DNA from: a virus
Reading direction: 5' to 3' (one strand)
DNA length: 64,000 nt
IMG/VR virus record: IMGVR_UViG_3300046457_000118
Coordinates: 1-64,000 of that record
Shown: one piece after another, positions 34,994-64,000 of the stretch
Position numbering within the stretch: position 1 is the stretch's first letter
Layout: every line of letters starts with the position of its first letter
Notes under the pieces: generated by a model
Databases searched by the model: none
What the model saw: the letters and a program-made list of their open reading frames with translations, nothing else
What the model was told of the DNA's origin: nothing
Position numbers and translations under genes: made by a program

Positions 34994-35046
34994 TCAATCC
35001 CGCTCCCTCGGCAACGAGGGGGCATCATCCCCCCAAAGAGGAAACC

Positions 35047-36363
35047 ATGAAACAACAGAAGACGTATTTCGCGTGGATCAACGACCATTCCGGTTCGATG
35101 CAGGACATTGCCCAAGCGGCCCTGAAGGACTTCAACGCGAACATTGAAGCAGTCGTGCAAGCCACCAGTGACAAGAAGTTGGACGCCATCGTGTCCGTGA
35201 TTCGTCTGGGCATCGGTGATTCGGGGCGTGGTGTCGAGCGCACCATCGTGAACTCGAATCCCCATGTCCTGAAGCCGATGGAGGACTGGCCAACGCCGGG
35301 TGGTACACCGCTGTATGATGCCATCGGCAATGCCATCGAACTGGGTGAATCCCTGCCGGATGCCAAGGAAGACCATGTGTCCTTCCTGATCACCATCACC
35401 ACGGACGGAGATGAACTGCATTCGCAAAAGTACAACGGCTTCACGATCAAGAAGCGGATCAAGGAAATGCAGGATACCGGTCGCTGGACCTTCGTGTTCC
35501 GTGTCCCGGCATCGTGTGTCGATGCAGTCAAAGACCTTGGCGTCCCGTTGGACAACATCCAGGCGTGGGATGTCAGTGAGAAGGGCATGGCCCAATCGAC
35601 CGCTGCAACCGCAGCCGCCATCGATTCCTACGTCACCACCCGTGCATCCGGCAAGAAGGCGACTGGCGGCTTTTTCGCCAATGCCACCAACGTCAACCTC
35701 GCCCAACTGGACGATGTATCGGCCCAGTACAAGCTGTACGTGGTGCCGGATGTCGATGCCGATGACGGCATGATGATCAGTGCCTTCATGCTGCGTCATC
35801 GCATGCAGTACCTGAAAGGTGCAGCCTTCTACCAACTGGTGAAGACCGAATCGAAGGTCGGTCCGGACAAGGCGATCCTGATCCAAGAGCGCACCACCGG
35901 CAAGGTGTACGGTGGCCAGCAGGCACGTGACATGCTGGGCATCCCACGCGGTCAGAACGCACGTCTGCATCCGGGTCAGCTTACCGGCTACAACGTGTTC
36001 ATCCAGTCCACTTCGTGGAACCGCAAGCTGCCCAAGGGTACTGGCGTGCTGTACAACGACAAGCTGGGTGTGCCGTTCACGCAGGAAGAACTCGACCGCT
36101 TCACGCTGCCCGCTGCACCGAAGGTCGTTCCCTCGGCACCGGTCTCGGCTATGCTGCCGGAAGTGAACAACACCAGCGGCAAGCCGGTGAAGTCCACTAT
36201 GCCGATCACGCAGCCATTGCAACCGGTGTTCTACAACACCCGTGACGATGCGCGTCGTGACAAGCAGATGAACGGTGCCGACTACATCGATCTGGGCAGC
36301 GACAAGCCAAAGGGTCAACGCTTTCAGCAGACCAAGCGTCCAAGCCACAAGCAGACGGCGTAA
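35047..36363 (+). CDS. vWA-domain protein with unknown C-terminal domain
   Basis: DHSGSM MIDAS, GTPLYDAI, TTDGDE; C-terminal YLKGAAFYQL..K.E..., FIQSTS.NRKL. Confidence 0.8.
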   Translation: MKQQKTYFAWINDHSGSMQDIAQAALKDFNANIEAVVQATSDKKLDAIVSVIRLGIGDSGRGVERTIVNSNPHVLKPMEDWPTPGGTPLYDAIGNAIELGESLPDAKEDHVSFLITITTDGDELHSQKYNGFTIKKRIKEMQDTGRWTFVFRVPASCVDAVKDLGVPLDNIQAWDVSEKGMAQSTAATAAAIDSYVTTRASGKKATGGFFANATNVNLAQLDDVSAQYKLYVVPDVDADDGMMISAFMLRHRMQYLKGAAFYQLVKTESKVGPDKAILIQERTTGKVYGGQQARDMLGIPRGQNARLHPGQLTGYNVFIQSTSWNRKLPKGTGVLYNDKLGVPFTQEELDRFTLPAAPKVVPSAPVSAMLPEVNNTSGKPVKSTMPITQPLQPVFYNTRDDARRDKQMNGADYIDLGSDKPKGQRFQQTKRPSHKQTA

Positions 36364-57524: not shown

Positions 57525-57719
57525 ATGATGCTGATCTACGGTATCGTCGTCATTGCCATCATCGCAGGACTGTTCTTCGTGTCCATGCTGTTGTCGGCTG
57601 TGATGTCCGTGATCGGTGGTGTCATCGGTGCCGCCCTTGCGGGTGGTGCCGTGATAGCATGGATTTATCTCTGCTGGTGCGGTTACCGTGCCAACAGGAA
57701 AAAAGGTGTCCGCAGGTAA
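57525..57719 (+). CDS. Small membrane protein
   Basis: Long hydrophobic stretch and basic C-terminus. Confidence 0.65.
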   Translation: MMLIYGIVVIAIIAGLFFVSMLLSAVMSVIGGVIGAALAGGAVIAWIYLCWCGYRANRKKGVRR

Positions 57720-57729
57720 TTGCTGACCG

Positions 57730-58076
57730 TCACCCTCACGAAACGAGGGCAAACCTTTCAAATGGGTAGAGTAAAAATATCCCTCGGCATAAACGAGGGA
57801 CCACACAGAGAGGCTTTCTCGGATGCATAGGGGCATGCTCACATGTTCCCTTATAAGCCTGACACCTTGAAAGTCTCTCTGTGTGGTGACGTGCAATGCT
57901 GATGCACAGGCAGGCTCCCAGTTAATTCCTTTTCTGGCAGCTTGCTGTCGGTGGAGATGGATTTCCATGGGGGCCGACAAGCCGGATGAAGACAGCACCG
58001 GCCACCACTACATACCTGTTCCGGGAAGGATGGGTAAGCAGAAGAAGAAAGCCCCCTCACGGGGGCTTTTCTTTTT
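57730..58076 (+). ncRNA. Candidate ~340-nt structured non-coding RNA
   Basis: At least eight helices including an 18-bp stem; G-U pairs consistent with + strand; ends at terminator. Confidence 0.55.
58047..58076. terminator. Bidirectional terminator
   Basis: GAAAGCCCCC-TCAC-GGGGGCTTTTCTTTTT. Confidence 0.85.
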
Positions 58077-61000
58077 AGTTGAAGGGCATCGTTACTGCCT
58101 TGTACGTGGCCAGCGTACCGATGGCTTGTGGGTAAGTGAACACACCAGCTTCAAGCGGGTTGTTACCCAGTCGATGGTAGAAGGAAGAATCCATCACCGT
58201 CGGCAGATGCTTGAAGTAGTGCGACAAGGCCACCAGTCCCAGAGCACGTCCCGGATTACCCCGGTGCAGTGCCAGCAGCACCTTCTGGATACGCAGGTAG
58301 TACTTGGTGAACCTCACGAAGCCCATGTCGTTCAGGTACTGGGTACGGCGATCCGTGGGCACGTCATAGAAGATGAATGCCTCGGATGCCAACGAGACGG
58401 CTTCCTCCTTTGACATCGGGTCTTTCTTCTTGGTCGTCATGTGCTGGTACAGCGTATAGCGACCAAGGAAGTCCGAGATTTGGGCAGCTTCCGACAGCAA
58501 CTGGTAGACATAAGTTTCATGGCCCATGTACAACTGGTTGGCCACCGACTTGACATCCGGATTGATCCAGCTAGTCAGTTGCTCCGTACGCTTGTTGAAC
58601 TTCGACTTGTACGAGTAGATGTCGTCATCCATCTCCACATCATCCACGATGGTCGGCATCAGGCCCGCTTGGATCAGTTCATGCATCGGGTTCCTTGCCA
58701 GTGCATCCTTCAGCTTGGCTACCCGAGCTTTATCCTCATTCACGTTGCCGGACGTTCCGGTGTCGAGCTTGGTCTGCAATGCGAACAGTTCAGCACTGTC
58801 ACGCTTGTAGGCGATAGCGCCACGGAATGCAATGCGGTGACTGCGGAAGATTTCCGTCAAAGGTACACCGAAGCCATACAACATAGAGATGTTCGAGGTC
58901 ATGTTGCCCATCAAAGTGGACAGGTTCTTCACGACCACGATGTCCTTGGCTTCCTTCACCAGCCACTGCCACATCTCTTCGACAGTACGCAGACGCACCA
59001 TTGCACGGGCTTCACGCGACTTGAAGTCTTCCGGATCAGCATGGTCGGACAGCATCTTGCCGGTACCGAGGAAACTCAACACATCCCCCATCAGCTTCTC
59101 CCAACCCTTGCGTGCTTCACGATCCTTCTTCAACACATCCGTGATCGACAGCTTACGGTAGCCGAAGGTCATGTCCAGCAGATCGATACGCACCTGCATG
59201 GCATCCGACTTCCACACTTCACGGATGGTCTGCTTGGCCGACTCAGGCAGTAGACGATAGATTTCACGCATCTCCGGATCAGCCGAACGCGGACCCACTT
59301 CGATGAATGAACGGGGACGCTCGTTGAACTCCTTACGGTACTGTTCATACAGCGTTTCCACCACCGTGCGGTTCTGTTTAGGCGTGCCTTCCTTGTCGTA
59401 GATCGAACCTGCCATCGTGCCCATCAGCTTGTCGAAACGGTTGTCCCGGTCAAGCACATTATCCTTCACGTCATTGGCCATCATGTAGCGGTAGTTGACC
59501 TTATCACCCTGTGGATTGATGACAGGTACAAGGTACTCTTCCGTCACCTTGTCCGGTTCAATCGGATGGGTGAACATACGCTGCACATCGTCTGCCACAT
59601 TCTGGCCGATCTGGTGCATCATTTCCGCGTTGTATAGTCCTTGATCGCTGAAGAAGTCCAGTACGCCGTTGTGCTTGGTCGTACCCTTGGTATTCATCGA
59701 GGTCAGCGACATGCTGCCGGTCAGGTATGGTTGCAGACCCGAGCCATGACGTGCCATCAGGTAGTTACCACCTGCTTCCGGATCAGCCTTGGCTGTTGCC
59801 AGCTTCATGCCTTGACCAAAGCCTTGATCACGCAAGTCATCGAGTTCATCCTTACTTGCCAGACGCAGTTCGACATAAGGGTTGTAGACCTCCGGCAGAT
59901 AGCCCTTCATCATCAGGGCTTCCTGATCCTTGAACAGACGTTCCTTCGAGTCGGCTTGCAGCTTCTCGTGCAGCTTCAGGGCCATCTCGACACCGTTGCC
60001 CTCATCCCGTGCCATCTCCTTGGCCATCAGTTCACTGGCCGTCGTCTTCTCATCGGCATTCGAGTAATGCAGGGCATACAGCGATGCCAGATGATCGATG
60101 GCCGGTTCGAAGCGCATGGCATCCTGTGGCATTGCCTGAGTTGTGCCATACAGGCGTGCGATGGCATGGGCATTTTGCATGGTGTTGGCGGCTCGTGCCT
60201 TGCCATTCACCATCTTGTAGCCCAGTGCCTTGGCTGCATTCACGTAGTACATCTGGTGCGGCGACGTAGCCAGTTCCTGCGTCACATCGACGATGGCTTG
60301 GGACAGCTTGGCTTGGTCATTCAGCAGGGCATGCAAGTCCTTCATGTCCGTGTAACGGGACATCAGGGACGCCATGTCGGTGCGCAGGAACACGTTGCTA
60401 ACGGCCTTCTTCATGTCGTCCGTCAGGTTCTTGCCCTCATCGCTGAAGGACTCGATCAGTACCTTCGAGGTACCGGCGATCAAGTCCTTGCGCTTGCCTT
60501 CAAACAGCTTGGCCATGCGCAGCAGATGCAGGAACACTCGGTTGCCATCATGGGCACCACGAATCTCGTTGATAGTGTTGGCGAACATGCCGTTACTGTA
60601 GTGGAAGTGCTGGTCACTGAAGTCCTGATACGCCTGGACCACATGGTCCAGGCGTTCCTTGACCGTAGCCGACACCAACGAGCCAGTCATCTTCAGGTAG
60701 CCGTTCTTGGCTTCCTTGAAGAACTTCGAGTTGGCCACCTCATCGACCTTGTTACGTGCACCCTTGGCCACCGAATTGAGCATACCTTCGATGGCATTGA
60801 CGGTCTGCGACTGTTCCACGTTCAGGCGGGCACGACGCTTGGCTTCGATCATCACAAGCTGGGTTGCCAGCGAGTCCAGCTTGCTGTCTGCCTGCTCGCC
60901 CATGCGGGTCTTGGTCCAGCGACCGACCACCCATTGCAGGGCTTCCTGCAACATCTGGTTCAGCTTACCCAGCAGGGTATCGGCAAACTGTTCGTCCGAC

Positions 61001-64000
61001 TTCAGCTTGGTCTTGAATTGCAGCAGGGCGTTGATCTTCGGATTAACCAAGCCAAGGGACACGAAGCGCGACAGATAGTCCGTATTCGGCGTCAGGGCAA
61101 ACAGGAAGTCATATTCATCCTGCGTCAGTCCAGTACCGATCTGATCCTTCAGCTTGTCACGGGCTTCCTCGTACAGCTTGCCGAGTTCCTTGAAGGCCAC
61201 GCTGGTCACGCCATCGGCTCCCGACAGGGCAGCACGCATGGTCACTTCCACCTGTTCCAGCACGAAGGCCACCTGCTCGTTACCTGCCAAGCCATGGGCC
61301 ACCGCATCCAGAGCGAATGGTGCCGTGCCATTGGTCTGGGCATTGGCCCAGATCGAGGCGGCACCCAGCGTACTGGTGCTCATGGCATCCTGACCGAAGG
61401 CACCGTAGATCGGGCTGAAGGTCTCGATCAGGCTGCTCAACAAGCCACGCAGACGGACATCATCTTGAGGCGACAATGGGTTGTTGGCGTTCTGCCCCAG
61501 TTCATTGTAGATGTCTGCCGTGGTATAACTCTGGGCCGGAGTAGCGTGCATCAAGGTCAGTTTGACACGCTCTGCCTCATTACCACGTGACTGTTCCATC
61601 AACCCAGAAACGTTGTAAATGAGGATCGACAATGCACGTTCTTTCGTGTCGGTGGCATCACCAAAGAACAACTTGGTCATGGCATTGGCAAACACTTTCA
61701 TGGCCTTGACCAAACGATTGCCACTAGTGCGAGACACCGGATACACGATCTGTTTCAGGAACTCTTGGAACTCCGGATTCGCCATGCCCCATGCGGTGAA
61801 CTCCTGCACATCCGTCAAAGCACCCTTAAACTTTTCGGCACCCGGATAGTTTTTCACGTAGGTCAGTAGGTCTTCAAGGTCTTTGATAATAGATTTACTA
61901 GCCTTCGAGACAGGTGAATCAATCTCATGCGAGATGGCAGCATGCACCAATTCATGCAGCACAGTCTCAATGTTCATACCACTCGATGCAAAACCATCAG
62001 ATTTTATGTACACATGGCTTTGCTGCCCTTTAGGTGCCAGTACGAACCAGCCGCATGCCTCTGAGTTTGGTAAGGAAAGCACTTCACCGGGATTGGTAGT
62101 AGGCGTAATCAGGTTGACGAACAGGTCTTCCGGCAGCACCTTGGCAAGCTGTTTTGCCAGCATATTGTTGACGCCAGTAGTGTTCTTGACCATATAGTCG
62201 ATGGCTTCTTTGCCTGACAACGTGGCCTTGTCAGCGAACATTTTTTGTACCACCGGGTCCACTGCTCGCCACGTCGATACACCAAGACGACCGAACGGCG
62301 TCAAGCCAGTGCCATCAAGCGAATTCATGATGCGAGCAGTCTGCTCGATCTTCTCTGCCGTGTCAGGCTTACCTACCACAGCAGCTACTGCTGCCATGTC
62401 GGCGCCCTTGGTTTCCATGGTCGGAGCGGCATCAGCCTCTTCCATCGGTGCCGTCTCCACTGCCTTGCCATCAGCGAAGTCACGGATGACATCGAATGCC
62501 TTGTGGGCTTCGTCGCTCATCTCGGTGACCACCGACTTGATATCGGCAAGTGCCTGTTCACGGACCGACTTCGGTACCTGATACTGGCCACTCTCCCATG
62601 TGTACTGGTCCACCACGCCAATCTTGGCGATGGTCGAGAGACGCACACGATCTGCATTCACGGCATTGGCGATGGCCATGGCACGGATACCGTTGACAGC
62701 TTCGGCCACCGACATATCCTGACGCTCCTTGGCTTTGACCTTGTTGCGTGCACCAACGACTTCCTTCCACTGGGCCACGATGGCATTCACATCGGCCTTG
62801 TCGATTTCGCCGTCTTGGATACGCTTGGCCAGATCGGCAGCGATCCGCTCCACCATGTTCAGGGCTTCACGGGCAGGCGAGAACTTCGACAGTGCCTGTA
62901 ACGTCGCACGGTTGATGGCCCCAGCTGCATTCGCCACTTCCAACACACCATGACCGATCTCGTCGTGCACGTTCAGGGCTTCCTGCACCGAGGCCAGAGC
63001 CGAGTGCATCAGGAACGAGTCGAGCGAGTGGATCAGGTAAGGCGTACCTGCCACACCCGGACTCGTCTCCACACGGTCCATGCCCTTCATGTGCAGGTTC
63101 TTGCTGGAACTGAAGGAGCCATCAGGATTGGCCTTGCCATTGACCACAGGCGAAGCCAAGGTGATCTGCGATTGCAGCATCGGGTCATCCGAAAGCTGGG
63201 TTTCCTGCTTGCCCATGTAGATACCATTGGCCAGATCACCACCCATCGAGTAGGCGGTATGGACCACTGGCAGCATGCCCGTCAGCTTCTCGCGCACAGC
63301 GTCTTCTTGTGCTGAGGTCAGGTCGGTACGGGGCTTCTTCTGCCCCTTGCCCGTTTCTTCGGTACCTCCGGTCTGCTCACGCCATGCCAGATGATCCTCT
63401 GCGATCAGGTCTTGAATAGCCTTCTTGCGTGCTGCCTTGTAGGCCACTTCGTACATGGCAAAGCCTGCCTGCACCGTACGGTTCAGGTCACCACGGCGTT
63501 CGATGAAGGTAGCGAAGTAGGACTCCATGGCCTGCTTGACTGGCTCACCCATGATGCCTCGGAAGGCTGCACGCAGCAGTTCCTCGCCATCCTTGGAGAT
63601 CGGATGGTTCATGAGTTCAGCAGCCTTGACGTTCGTGTCGAACGGCTGGATGTCACCCTGAGACTTCATCAACACATTCATGGCATTCACGAAGCCAGAC
63701 ACATCAGCAGGCTTGCCAGCGTGTTCTTCCTTGGCCAGCTTCTCGATCTTCTTGTAGATGCTGTCGATGAACTTGTTCTCCATCGCCGTGATGGAACCCT
63801 TCAGCGACGAACCGAAGGCGAATGCCGTCAGTGGCGTCTTCACCAGATCACGACCTTCCTTGGTCACATCCTGATTGGCATCCTGTAGCGTGCCGAGGAT
63901 CGACTGCATGGCATCGAACGGAGCATCCTTGGTGACGTGCTTCAGCAGGTAGGATGCCAAGTCCTGATACAAGTCCTTGCCCTTGGTGTCCTTGCGCCAC
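58075..64000 (-). CDS. Virion-encapsidated RNA polymerase (N4 gp50), 5' part outside window
   Basis: More than 1,965 aa; motif B RDLVKTPLTAFAFG, YLIHSLD, motif C VHD, HELVH, DFLGRY..Y, FTKYYLRIQK C-terminus. Confidence 0.93.
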   Translation of the reverse strand, partial: WRKDTKGKDLYQDLASYLLKHVTKDAPFDAMQSILGTLQDANQDVTKEGRDLVKTPLTAFAFGSSLKGSITAMENKFIDSIYKKIEKLAKEEHAGKPADVSGFVNAMNVLMKSQGDIQPFDTNVKAAELMNHPISKDGEELLRAAFRGIMGEPVKQAMESYFATFIERRGDLNRTVQAGFAMYEVAYKAARKKAIQDLIAEDHLAWREQTGGTEETGKGQKKPRTDLTSAQEDAVREKLTGMLPVVHTAYSMGGDLANGIYMGKQETQLSDDPMLQSQITLASPVVNGKANPDGSFSSSKNLHMKGMDRVETSPGVAGTPYLIHSLDSFLMHSALASVQEALNVHDEIGHGVLEVANAAGAINRATLQALSKFSPAREALNMVERIAADLAKRIQDGEIDKADVNAIVAQWKEVVGARNKVKAKERQDMSVAEAVNGIRAMAIANAVNADRVRLSTIAKIGVVDQYTWESGQYQVPKSVREQALADIKSVVTEMSDEAHKAFDVIRDFADGKAVETAPMEEADAAPTMETKGADMAAVAAVVGKPDTAEKIEQTARIMNSLDGTGLTPFGRLGVSTWRAVDPVVQKMFADKATLSGKEAIDYMVKNTTGVNNMLAKQLAKVLPEDLFVNLITPTTNPGEVLSLPNSEACGWFVLAPKGQQSHVYIKSDGFASSGMNIETVLHELVHAAISHEIDSPVSKASKSIIKDLEDLLTYVKNYPGAEKFKGALTDVQEFTAWGMANPEFQEFLKQIVYPVSRTSGNRLVKAMKVFANAMTKLFFGDATDTKERALSILIYNVSGLMEQSRGNEAERVKLTLMHATPAQSYTTADIYNELGQNANNPLSPQDDVRLRGLLSSLIETFSPIYGAFGQDAMSTSTLGAASIWANAQTNGTAPFALDAVAHGLAGNEQVAFVLEQVEVTMRAALSGADGVTSVAFKELGKLYEEARDKLKDQIGTGLTQDEYDFLFALTPNTDYLSRFVSLGLVNPKINALLQFKTKLKSDEQFADTLLGKLNQMLQEALQWVVGRWTKTRMGEQADSKLDSLATQLVMIEAKRRARLNVEQSQTVNAIEGMLNSVAKGARNKVDEVANSKFFKEAKNGYLKMTGSLVSATVKERLDHVVQAYQDFSDQHFHYSNGMFANTINEIRGAHDGNRVFLHLLRMAKLFEGKRKDLIAGTSKVLIESFSDEGKNLTDDMKKAVSNVFLRTDMASLMSRYTDMKDLHALLNDQAKLSQAIVDVTQELATSPHQMYYVNAAKALGYKMVNGKARAANTMQNAHAIARLYGTTQAMPQDAMRFEPAIDHLASLYALHYSNADEKTTASELMAKEMARDEGNGVEMALKLHEKLQADSKERLFKDQEALMMKGYLPEVYNPYVELRLASKDELDDLRDQGFGQGMKLATAKADPEAGGNYLMARHGSGLQPYLTGSMSLTSMNTKGTTKHNGVLDFFSDQGLYNAEMMHQIGQNVADDVQRMFTHPIEPDKVTEEYLVPVINPQGDKVNYRYMMANDVKDNVLDRDNRFDKLMGTMAGSIYDKEGTPKQNRTVVETLYEQYRKEFNERPRSFIEVGPRSADPEMREIYRLLPESAKQTIREVWKSDAMQVRIDLLDMTFGYRKLSITDVLKKDREARKGWEKLMGDVLSFLGTGKMLSDHADPEDFKSREARAMVRLRTVEEMWQWLVKEAKDIVVVKNLSTLMGNMTSNISMLYGFGVPLTEIFRSHRIAFRGAIAYKRDSAELFALQTKLDTGTSGNVNEDKARVAKLKDALARNPMHELIQAGLMPTIVDDVEMDDDIYSYKSKFNKRTEQLTSWINPDVKSVANQLYMGHETYVYQLLSEAAQISDFLGRYTLYQHMTTKKKDPMSKEEAVSLASEAFIFYDVPTDRRTQYLNDMGFVRFTKYYLRIQKVLLALHRGNPGRALGLVALSHYFKHLPTVMDSSFYHRLGNNPLEAGVFTYPQAIGTLATYKAVTMPFN

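Follow-up and report, generated by a model that had tools for sequence, protein, structure and literature searches.

A structured RNA at the end of an N4-like phage operon, a probable member of a widespread family of tRNA-shaped phage RNAs

Introduction

What kind of element fills a 355-nt gap free of open reading frames (ORFs) between two convergent transcription units of an N4-like phage is the question raised by IMG/VR record IMGVR_UViG_3300046457_000118. The first 64 kb of this 76,358-bp virus record were analysed (hereafter the window), and the stretch that was folded spans positions 57720-58076. An initial annotation of the window had proposed that this gap encodes a structured non-coding RNA of the + strand, possibly belonging to an "orphan proteobacterial-phage RNA family". 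The results described below make it very probable that the gap contains a real structured RNA element and that this element is a diverged member of a widespread phage family conserved in RNA structure. The complete proposal, namely a + strand structured RNA of this family that works as a processed, stable scaffold with active variable arms, appears on balance probable.

Folding of the gap

On the + strand, the gap reaches a minimum free energy (MFE) of -158.6 kcal/mol, compared with -114.7 +/- 5.8 kcal/mol for dinucleotide-shuffled sequences (z -7.58), and none of 100 shuffles folded as well. The - strand gave a z score of -5.04. Most helices of the gap have a pair probability of at least 0.9, and the G-U pairs of the fold form on the + strand only, which favours a + strand RNA as initially supposed. 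The parts described in the initial annotation were also recovered (Table 1). These are two sibling hairpins of the CCCUC type (H1 and H2), a long stem announced as 18 bp and found to be one pair longer (P1), four further hairpins between 57891 and 58002 with pair probabilities of 0.90-1.0, and a strong terminator that follows the element.

Two long-range contacts had been claimed in addition, and both proved complementary. GUGGUG can pair with CACCAC to close the four hairpins as an acceptor-like helix, and UGCUG in the loop of the first of them (arm a) can pair with CAGCA in the loop of the last (arm b). Folded in isolation, the stretch 57882-58009 has a cloverleaf as its MFE structure (-57.0 kcal/mol), while in the entire gap forcing the GUGGUG/CACCAC helix costs 4.2 kcal/mol, the loop-loop helix not yet counted. 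P1 encloses a 50-nt apical part and its 3' strand, ending in ..GUGUGG, shares 5 nt with the acceptor-like helix, in agreement with the overlap that had been pointed out. The long stem and the closing helix can nevertheless largely coexist, and a switch between them is therefore not required.

No conserved reading frame was found in the gap, and a tblastx search for decayed ORFs gave nothing convincing. ARAGORN reported no gene for a tRNA or a transfer-messenger RNA (tmRNA) in the window. In the same way, the Rfam models, C4 and c4-type RNAs included, returned terminator-like noise only at gathering and relaxed thresholds, so that the element is not a known Rfam family.

Membership in a phage RNA family

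The hairpin H1 is a 17-mer, CCCTCACGAAACGAGGG (57733-57749), that is found exactly in other phage contigs, often with a CCG..-type 5' flank; CUG(A)CCGUC(A/U) precedes the identical 17-mer in L089, L094, L097 and L046. Most copies of the 17-mer adjoin tRNA genes, two are located in Oxalobacteraceae proviruses, and five carriers that were checked are not N4-like and lack the virion RNA polymerase (vRNAP). A long stem lies directly 3' of the hairpin in several contigs, as in the window, and a single-sequence model of hairpin and stem (R1) recovered such units in L046, L097 (three in tandem), L092 and L085. Moreover, hairpins with the same ACGAAAC loop and covarying stems stand ahead of the long stem in some members of the family described here.

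Other meanings of H1 were considered and rejected. As a T3/T7-like or LUZ7-type promoter of the phage RNA polymerase II (RNAP II), it would be represented by only three copies in the genome, and the five carriers mentioned above have no vRNAP. A hammerhead-like reading of CGAAAC with CUGAUG found no Rfam ribozyme match, and three matches to the hairpin pattern in Eremiobacterota look like coding-sequence coincidences.

The soil contig L097 is collinear with the window over the entire 3' half of the element. It displays the same ..CUGUGUGGUGA stem end, the same order of parts, a next hairpin with a covarying stem and the same GCUGA loop, and the 16-mer CAGCACCGGCCACCAC that is identical to the window. 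Conserved words taken from this comparison were scanned in IMG/VR. The first word was present in 93 stretches, whereas a rough estimate of chance matches amounts to a handful only, and the second in more than 120 stretches, which is a lower bound.

Forty-eight other phage copies, with the window and L097 excluded, served to build a covariance model (R2). Its sole match in the 64-kb window is 57882-58009 on the + strand, with 34 bits and an E-value of 5.4e-6 over 540 kb (9.5e-6 over 953 kb). R2 also matches L097 (E 1e-19) and three other N4-like phages, namely L018 at the same hot spot, L072 within a tRNA cluster, and the E. coli phage PE007, in which the copy lies 1.6 kb downstream of the RuvC-like gene. 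The model found no match in LUZ7 (L083) or LIT1.

Part by part, the window copy resembles the family. Its acceptor-like helix has 6 bp, the seventh pair being U-U. Arm a follows the helix after two bases, has GCUG in its loop and differs from the consensus GCGCA/UGCGC by a compensated U-A pair, while arm b combines GCCGG/CCGGC with CAGC in its loop and is immediately followed by the 3' strand of the helix. The long stem and the abutting hairpin (57781-99) are family features as well, since a 5-6 bp hairpin immediately 5' of the long stem recurs in the sampled copies. The loop-loop contact is shifted: the consensus register GCUGA/UCAGC would give 4 bp and an A-A mismatch in the window, whereas the register UGCUG/CAGCA gives 5 bp, so that the consensus A-U pair is lost and a U-A pair is gained one step on.

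Two side observations concern the modules found through H1. At L097:1514-2130 (+), three tandem units of hairpin and long stem precede the tRNA-shaped domain, and the modules can thus array. At L046:5426-5547 (+), between tRNA-Arg and tRNA-Tyr, a tRNA-like structure (acceptor AAAGAGU/ACUCUUU, T-arm GCAAGUUCGAAUCUUGC) comes right after the 17-mer hairpin and has no ARAGORN or Rfam call.

Conserved anatomy and covariation

Members of the family are characterized by a fixed order of parts: a 5-6 bp hairpin, a long stem, (U)GUGGUG, a two-base connector, arm a, a middle part, arm b and CACCAC(A). In the consensus, arm a is GCGCA-GGCUGA-UGCGC and arm b is GCCGG-AGAUCAGCA-CCGGC. The middle, on the contrary, measures 40-200 nt and is unrelated between copies, with 65 different middles on one scaffold. 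The apical part of the long stem is also variable and in some copies takes the form of a T-arm or of an entire tRNA-like insert with a score on the Rfam tRNA model. The GUGGUG/CACCAC helix runs straight into the stem of arm b over about 12 bp, and the two would presumably stack coaxially. The domain is called tRNA-shaped because this run of about 12 bp resembles the stack of acceptor and T-arm and because complementary loops occupy the position of the elbow.

Covariation was counted for 22 pairs in 103 distinct copies aligned to the model. Standard pairs fill 98.7% of the cells, and changes on both sides were observed in 15 of the 22 pairs, as compared with 1.2 +/- 1.0 in shuffles (0/500 reach 15) and 2-5 in slid controls. 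Compensated pairs are distributed over the acceptor-like helix (helix 1, 5/7), arm b (helix 4, 4/5) and the loop-loop helix (helix 3, 3/5), and arm a (helix 2) also covaries. The closing helix and the loop-loop contact that had been predicted from the window copy are thus both found to covary in the family. Where only one partner had changed and a standard pair was kept, the new pair was in most cases a G-U or U-G wobble, in keeping with an RNA of this strand. The three compensated loop-loop pairs all come from L072, which has AUCGA/UCGAU in place of GCUGA/UCAGC and also compensates three pairs of the acceptor-like helix.

The long stem is conserved as a shape rather than as a sequence: it has at least 12 bp in 66 of 102 copies, with 97 distinct sequences of the 5' arm. 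As in the window, the first five bases of the acceptor-like helix are regularly shared with the 3' strand of the long stem, and this overlap is itself conserved. As a side observation, the variable middle of L261:3725-3846 contains GCAGCUUAAUAA, which we take to correspond to the final part of the tag frame of E. coli tmRNA.

Distribution and genomic contexts

The family is widespread among cultivated phages. BLAST with the core retrieved 137 isolate phage records from Escherichia, Klebsiella, Salmonella and Erwinia, including lambdoid, N4-like and Ackermannviridae phages, and one variant was found in 108 of 5426 complete E. coli genomes, nearly always without annotation. RefSeq annotation of the E. 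coli copies is rare and then reads hypothetical protein. Searches of family copies, a consensus copy among them, with Rfam 15 gave no matching model besides tRNAs and terminator-like noise, and the family was not found described in the literature, whether searched for sequence words or for topic. Membership in an uncatalogued family, as first suggested, is therefore upheld, whereas "orphan" holds only in the sense of unnamed because the family has many members and is present in many phage groups.

The copies occupy recurrent positions. In HK620, an unannotated copy (AF335538 15994-16220) follows the annotated pR'/qut and precedes the late terminator tQ. At 16-18 loci the copy is flanked by genes for a Q-like antiterminator and a holin, and at 9-10 loci by a gene for a CI-like repressor and an N-like gene, downstream of a boxA-like GCUCUUUAACAA. 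Elsewhere, copies are found among tRNA genes and in the same direction as these; at the loci checked, they are always co-directional with their neighbours. As far as gene order allows judging, the contexts of the family are heavily transcribed, untranslated stretches.

These positions agree with an explanation in which the element acts in cis as a put-like antitermination or anti-Rho RNA, the nascent fold riding RNA polymerase through the terminators of long untranslated stretches. Copies do lie behind pR'/qut before the late terminator and behind the boxA-like sequence upstream of N-like genes, others are located in untranslated tRNA clusters, and put of phage HK022 shows that RNA alone suffices for antitermination, without dedicated proteins (PMC9378689). 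Yet the window element is the last one before a strong terminator and a convergent gene, which leaves nothing downstream to read, put has a different architecture (about 70 nt, two stems), and carriers of the family often encode Q or N proteins too. In addition, the biology of N4 leads to expect that the operon of the window is read by the phage T7-like RNAP II and not by the host polymerase. Such an antitermination role is judged decidedly unlikely.

The copies in N leaders form one class (L105, L125, L137, L173 and others). Their 3' tail, ..CACCACACCACCAAAGC, is complementary to GCUUUGGGGUGUGGUG before arm a, a pairing that lengthens the closing helix to about 16 bp, with the boxA-like GCUCUUUAACAA upstream. 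The prophage small RNAs PasD/STnc100 were considered as a possible identity for copies in the slot between Q and holin genes, which they share, and were rejected since the consensus copy has no Rfam STnc100 match.

Layout of the locus

The window phage is N4-like (Schitoviridae) according to its PHROG matches, which comprise DNA polymerase, rIIA/rIIB, primase, SSB, a Gam-like protein and a RuvC-like resolvase, with the virion RNA polymerase on the opposite strand. The gap separates the end of the rightward operon from this late gene, and no terminator was found between the last ORF of the operon and the element. The coordinates of all parts are collected in Table 1.

Table 1. Parts of the structured RNA element and its flanking genes, in window coordinates.
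Feature	Position	Strand	Remark
Final ORF of the rightward (middle/replication) operon, 64 aa, hydrophobic	57525..57719	+	TAA stop immediately 5' of the element
5' flank UUGCUGACCGUCA	57720..57732	+	With H1, common to unrelated phage contigs
Hairpin H1, CCCUC-ACGAAAC-GAGGG	57733..57749	+	Exact 17-mer in other phage contigs
A/U-rich linker (..GUAGAGUAAAAAUAU)	57750..57780	+	Possible RNase E-type entry site
Hairpin H2 (P0), CCCUCG-GCAUAAA-CGAGGG	57781..57799	+	Adjoins the long stem
P1, 19-bp stem (57800-57818 with 57869-57887), one G-U, probability 0.99	57800..57887	+	
tRNA-shaped core domain, 128 nt	57882..58009	+	Match of covariance model R2
Acceptor-like helix, 5' strand GUGGUG	57883..57888	+	Pairs with CACCAC 58003-58008
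Arm a, GUGCA-AUGCUGA-UGCAC, loop with UGCUG (57897-57901)	57891..57907	+	
Variable middle, two hairpins (57910-57945 and 57946-57979)	57908..57980	+	Hypervariable position of the family
Arm b, GCCGG-AUGAAGACAGCA-CCGGC, loop with CAGCA (57993-57997)	57981..58002	+	
Acceptor-like helix, 3' strand CACCAC	58003..58008	+	Within the 16-mer CAGCACCGGCCACCAC identical in L097
3' linker	58010..58041	+	Pairs with 57720-57773 in the MFE fold, predicted closure of the whole gap
Intrinsic terminator common to both convergent units	58042..58076	.	U-run strong on +, weak on -
Virion RNA polymerase gene, 3' part, convergent, late	58075..63999	-	phrog_2206, E 0

Two further observations concern the small hairpins. 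On the - strand, H2 (57801-57779) followed by AUUUUUAC forms a terminator-like site whose U-run is supplied by the A/U-rich linker, and late transcripts passing the weak - side of the main terminator could end there. A third CCCUCG..CGAGGG hairpin, with a GCAA loop, is present at 35005-35020 (+), 12 nt past a TAA stop and 26 nt ahead of the ATG of an ORF (35047-36363), and is the sole other copy in the 76-kb genome.

A variable spot in N4-like relatives

Through an alignment of RuvC-like proteins, 80 N4-like relatives were gathered. In the minimal layout, the RuvC gene, the genes of a protein of about 120 aa and of one of about 60 aa, and the vRNAP stop lie within about 600 nt, while the interval between RuvC and vRNAP reaches 2.7 kb in other relatives. 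Set against this layout, the window gap represents inserted DNA, and the spot that it occupies, flanked by the RuvC-like gene and the convergent vRNAP gene, is a variable one. Six relatives (L018, L023, L046, L048, L049 and L073) have tRNA genes in the interval, and others have different, strongly folding stretches free of ORFs.

The sequence of the gap is little shared. Its similarity to the 80 relatives, searched with blastn and nhmmer, is limited to the terminator and a 23-nt hairpin. No match was obtained with blastn of the window region against isolate phages or with the 18-mer of the long stem in IMG/VR, and a scan for close relatives with the C-terminus of vRNAP found none. The nearest RuvC relatives (87-70% identity) were found only in Logan assemblies.

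That relatives carry tRNAs at this spot suggests a decayed tRNA gene cluster as the source of the gap, and the cloverleaf shape of the core, along with inserts in some copies that score on the Rfam tRNA model, points in the same direction. However, neither ARAGORN nor the Rfam tRNA model finds anything in the window, the scaffold has a consensus that does not resemble D and T loops and that compensatory changes preserve in more than 100 copies, and decay would not yield a z score of -7.6. This origin is disfavoured to the point of being hardly credible.

An element acting at the DNA level, be it a mobile cassette, a recombination hot spot or a replication signal made of inverted repeats, would account for the insertion relative to the minimal layout and for the non-homologous places of the family in unrelated phages, and the conserved end blocks around a variable middle could serve as recombination anchors. 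Against this, many substitutions pair only as G-U on one strand, which a DNA cruciform does not tolerate, and the orientation always follows local transcription. Flanking target duplications were not seen on direct reading of the window, no systematic search having been made. A DNA-level function is therefore considered very unlikely, and mobility by recombination may explain the spread of the family without being its function.

The element could also be limited to the processing and stability of its messenger, as a hairpin-rich 3' untranslated region with an RNase III stem and tRNA-like punctuation, which would shield transcripts or divide them from one another without any role in trans. Its place at the 3' end of the operon before the terminator, its 19-bp stem (perfect but for one G-U) and the leader slots occupied by family copies speak for such a module. 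A generic stabiliser, however, would need neither a near-invariant scaffold across lambdoid, N4-like, Ackermannviridae and other phages nor a conserved loop-loop contact, and the relatives with the minimal layout manage without the insert. This restricted role is regarded as rather unlikely.

Different elements were seen at the same spot in other relatives. At L031:5115-5557 (+), the gap before the vRNAP stop ends in a look-alike of a tRNA 3' half (GGUUCGAUUCC ... CCACCA) that ARAGORN does not call. L054:5112-5353 and L034:3521-3666 share with each other a distinct folding element (z -7.3).

Proposed function

The transcribed, untranslated contexts of the family, together with its near-invariant scaffold and its hypervariable middle, favour a processed and stable scaffold RNA. 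In this proposal, the RNA would be co-transcribed at the end of the middle (replication) operon and would end at the terminator 58042-58076. It would consist of a leader with two small hairpins, the 19-bp stem-loop P1 and the 128-nt tRNA-shaped domain. In the core of this domain, the 6-bp acceptor-like helix would sit on the 5-bp stem of arm b, and arms a and b would touch through the 5-bp loop-loop helix, which would take the place of the elbow formed by the D-loop and T-loop of tRNA, two variable hairpins being at the position of the anticodon arm.

The RNA would probably be cut from the operon transcript and persist as a stable small RNA. Candidate cuts are an RNase III-like one in the 19-bp stem, an RNase P-like one on the 5' side of the acceptor-like helix and a third in the A/U linker. 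The scaffold may stabilise the RNA and dock it to a conserved host machine, and a phage-specific activity may reside in the hypervariable arms. Contact with a conserved host component is suggested because the scaffold is near-invariant across very different phages, and a cassette-like effector because the middle is hypervariable. This mode of action, from excision and persistence to docking and variable-arm activity, is put forward tentatively.

Several points weigh against the proposal. Cleavage of the RNA by any of the enzymes RNase III, RNase P and RNase E is conjectural. The window copy scores low for the family (34 bits versus 60-89), and its loop-loop helix is shifted by one base since the U of the consensus AUCAGC loop is missing from it. 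Support for this helix in the family comes from one triply compensated copy, L072, and from wobble changes. The copies were fetched by exact conserved words and aligned by the model, and the cells counted are non-independent events; such sampling limits the variation and makes the alignment lean towards the structure. An N-CCA tail right after the acceptor-like helix is enriched but present in only 12 of 104 copies, the window copy not being one of them, so that a true tRNA-like 3' end is not a rule of the family. Finally, complementarity of the variable arms to the phage genome was limited to 12-mers, taken as chance level, and no target was found.

A bolder version would see in the family a natural "tRNA scaffold" system, in which a near-invariant frame with a kissing elbow docks to a host machine conserved in all hosts, for example RNase P, the ribosome or a tRNA-handling enzyme, while a hypervariable arm, exchanged freely among phages, acts as a programmable effector. 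The effector could be a decoy, a guide or an antisense RNA in conflicts between phage and host or between phages, and the window copy a cassette captured at a hot spot for RNA genes. This version is speculative and, as it stands, improbable.

Significance

If the family is as undescribed as Rfam, RefSeq and the literature suggest, few structured phage RNAs still lacking a name and a function are as widespread. Its carriers range from HK620 and other textbook phages to clinical E. coli and Klebsiella phages and to lytic N4-like phages, and since tractable carriers exist, its function is directly testable. The kissing elbow formed by Watson-Crick pairs would, if true, be a new solution to tRNA mimicry.

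The window contributes to this picture in two ways. It extends the family from lambdoid leaders to an environmental N4-like phage, and it connects the family with the conserved hairpin that serves as a mark of tRNA clusters among unrelated phages. In parallel, the N4-like relative L072 is the only copy in which both the loop-loop and the acceptor-like helices are multiply compensated.

Comparison with known RNAs

Canonical tRNA is resembled in the cloverleaf-like junction, in the acceptor-like helix of 6-7 bp that continues into a 5-bp arm, and in the two-base connector before the first arm. On the contrary, the family has no anticodon arm, no D-loop or T-loop consensus and no consistent CCA tail, and a Watson-Crick loop-loop helix replaces the tRNA elbow. 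On the window, the Rfam tRNA model gave no match even at E-values up to 10.

Non-decoding tRNA mimics offer another point of comparison. The YrlA RNAs, some of them phage-borne, are reportedly such mimics, with a long stem extending the acceptor end, an account ascribed to Chen et al. in 2014. The conserved scaffold sequences of the present family differ from those of YrlA and of the tRNA-like domain of tmRNA, and neither ARAGORN nor Rfam called a tmRNA in the window or in the consensus copy.

RNase III sites, such as those of the T7 early region and of the lambda N leader, also have a long, near-perfect stem between or after genes, and leader slots are occupied by copies of the family. In the family, however, the stem is one module of a larger conserved RNA, and cleavage in the window copy is putative.

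A similar zone is known from another N4-like phage. In the Pseudomonas phage LUZ7, the orf69-orf70 gap was shown experimentally to yield abundant small RNAs late in infection, sRNA1-3 (PMC9163698). Like the window gap, this stretch of about 400 nt is non-coding and occupies the same zone, downstream of a gp46-like/RuvC-like gene and before the vRNAP gene, and it folds strongly (z -6.2). It differs by the absence of a match to the family model and of sequence similarity to the window.

The put RNA of HK022 (putL, putR) is likewise a phage RNA in leader positions that the family also uses, placed shortly after an early promoter and causing terminators further on to be passed. It binds the zinc-binding domain of the beta' subunit and has neither a cloverleaf nor a variable arm in its two stems, and the context of the window is unsuited to antitermination.

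A close counterpart is the copy of HK620. It shares with the window the order of parts, with a small hairpin and a long covarying stem ahead of the UGUGGUG/CACCACA helix, the GCUG loop of arm a and arm b with GCCGG/CCGGC and a CAGC loop. The window copy is distinguished from it by a second upstream hairpin, by two middle hairpins and by the one-base shift of the loop-loop helix, and it stands at the 3' end of an N4-like middle operon where HK620 has its copy in a lambdoid leader.

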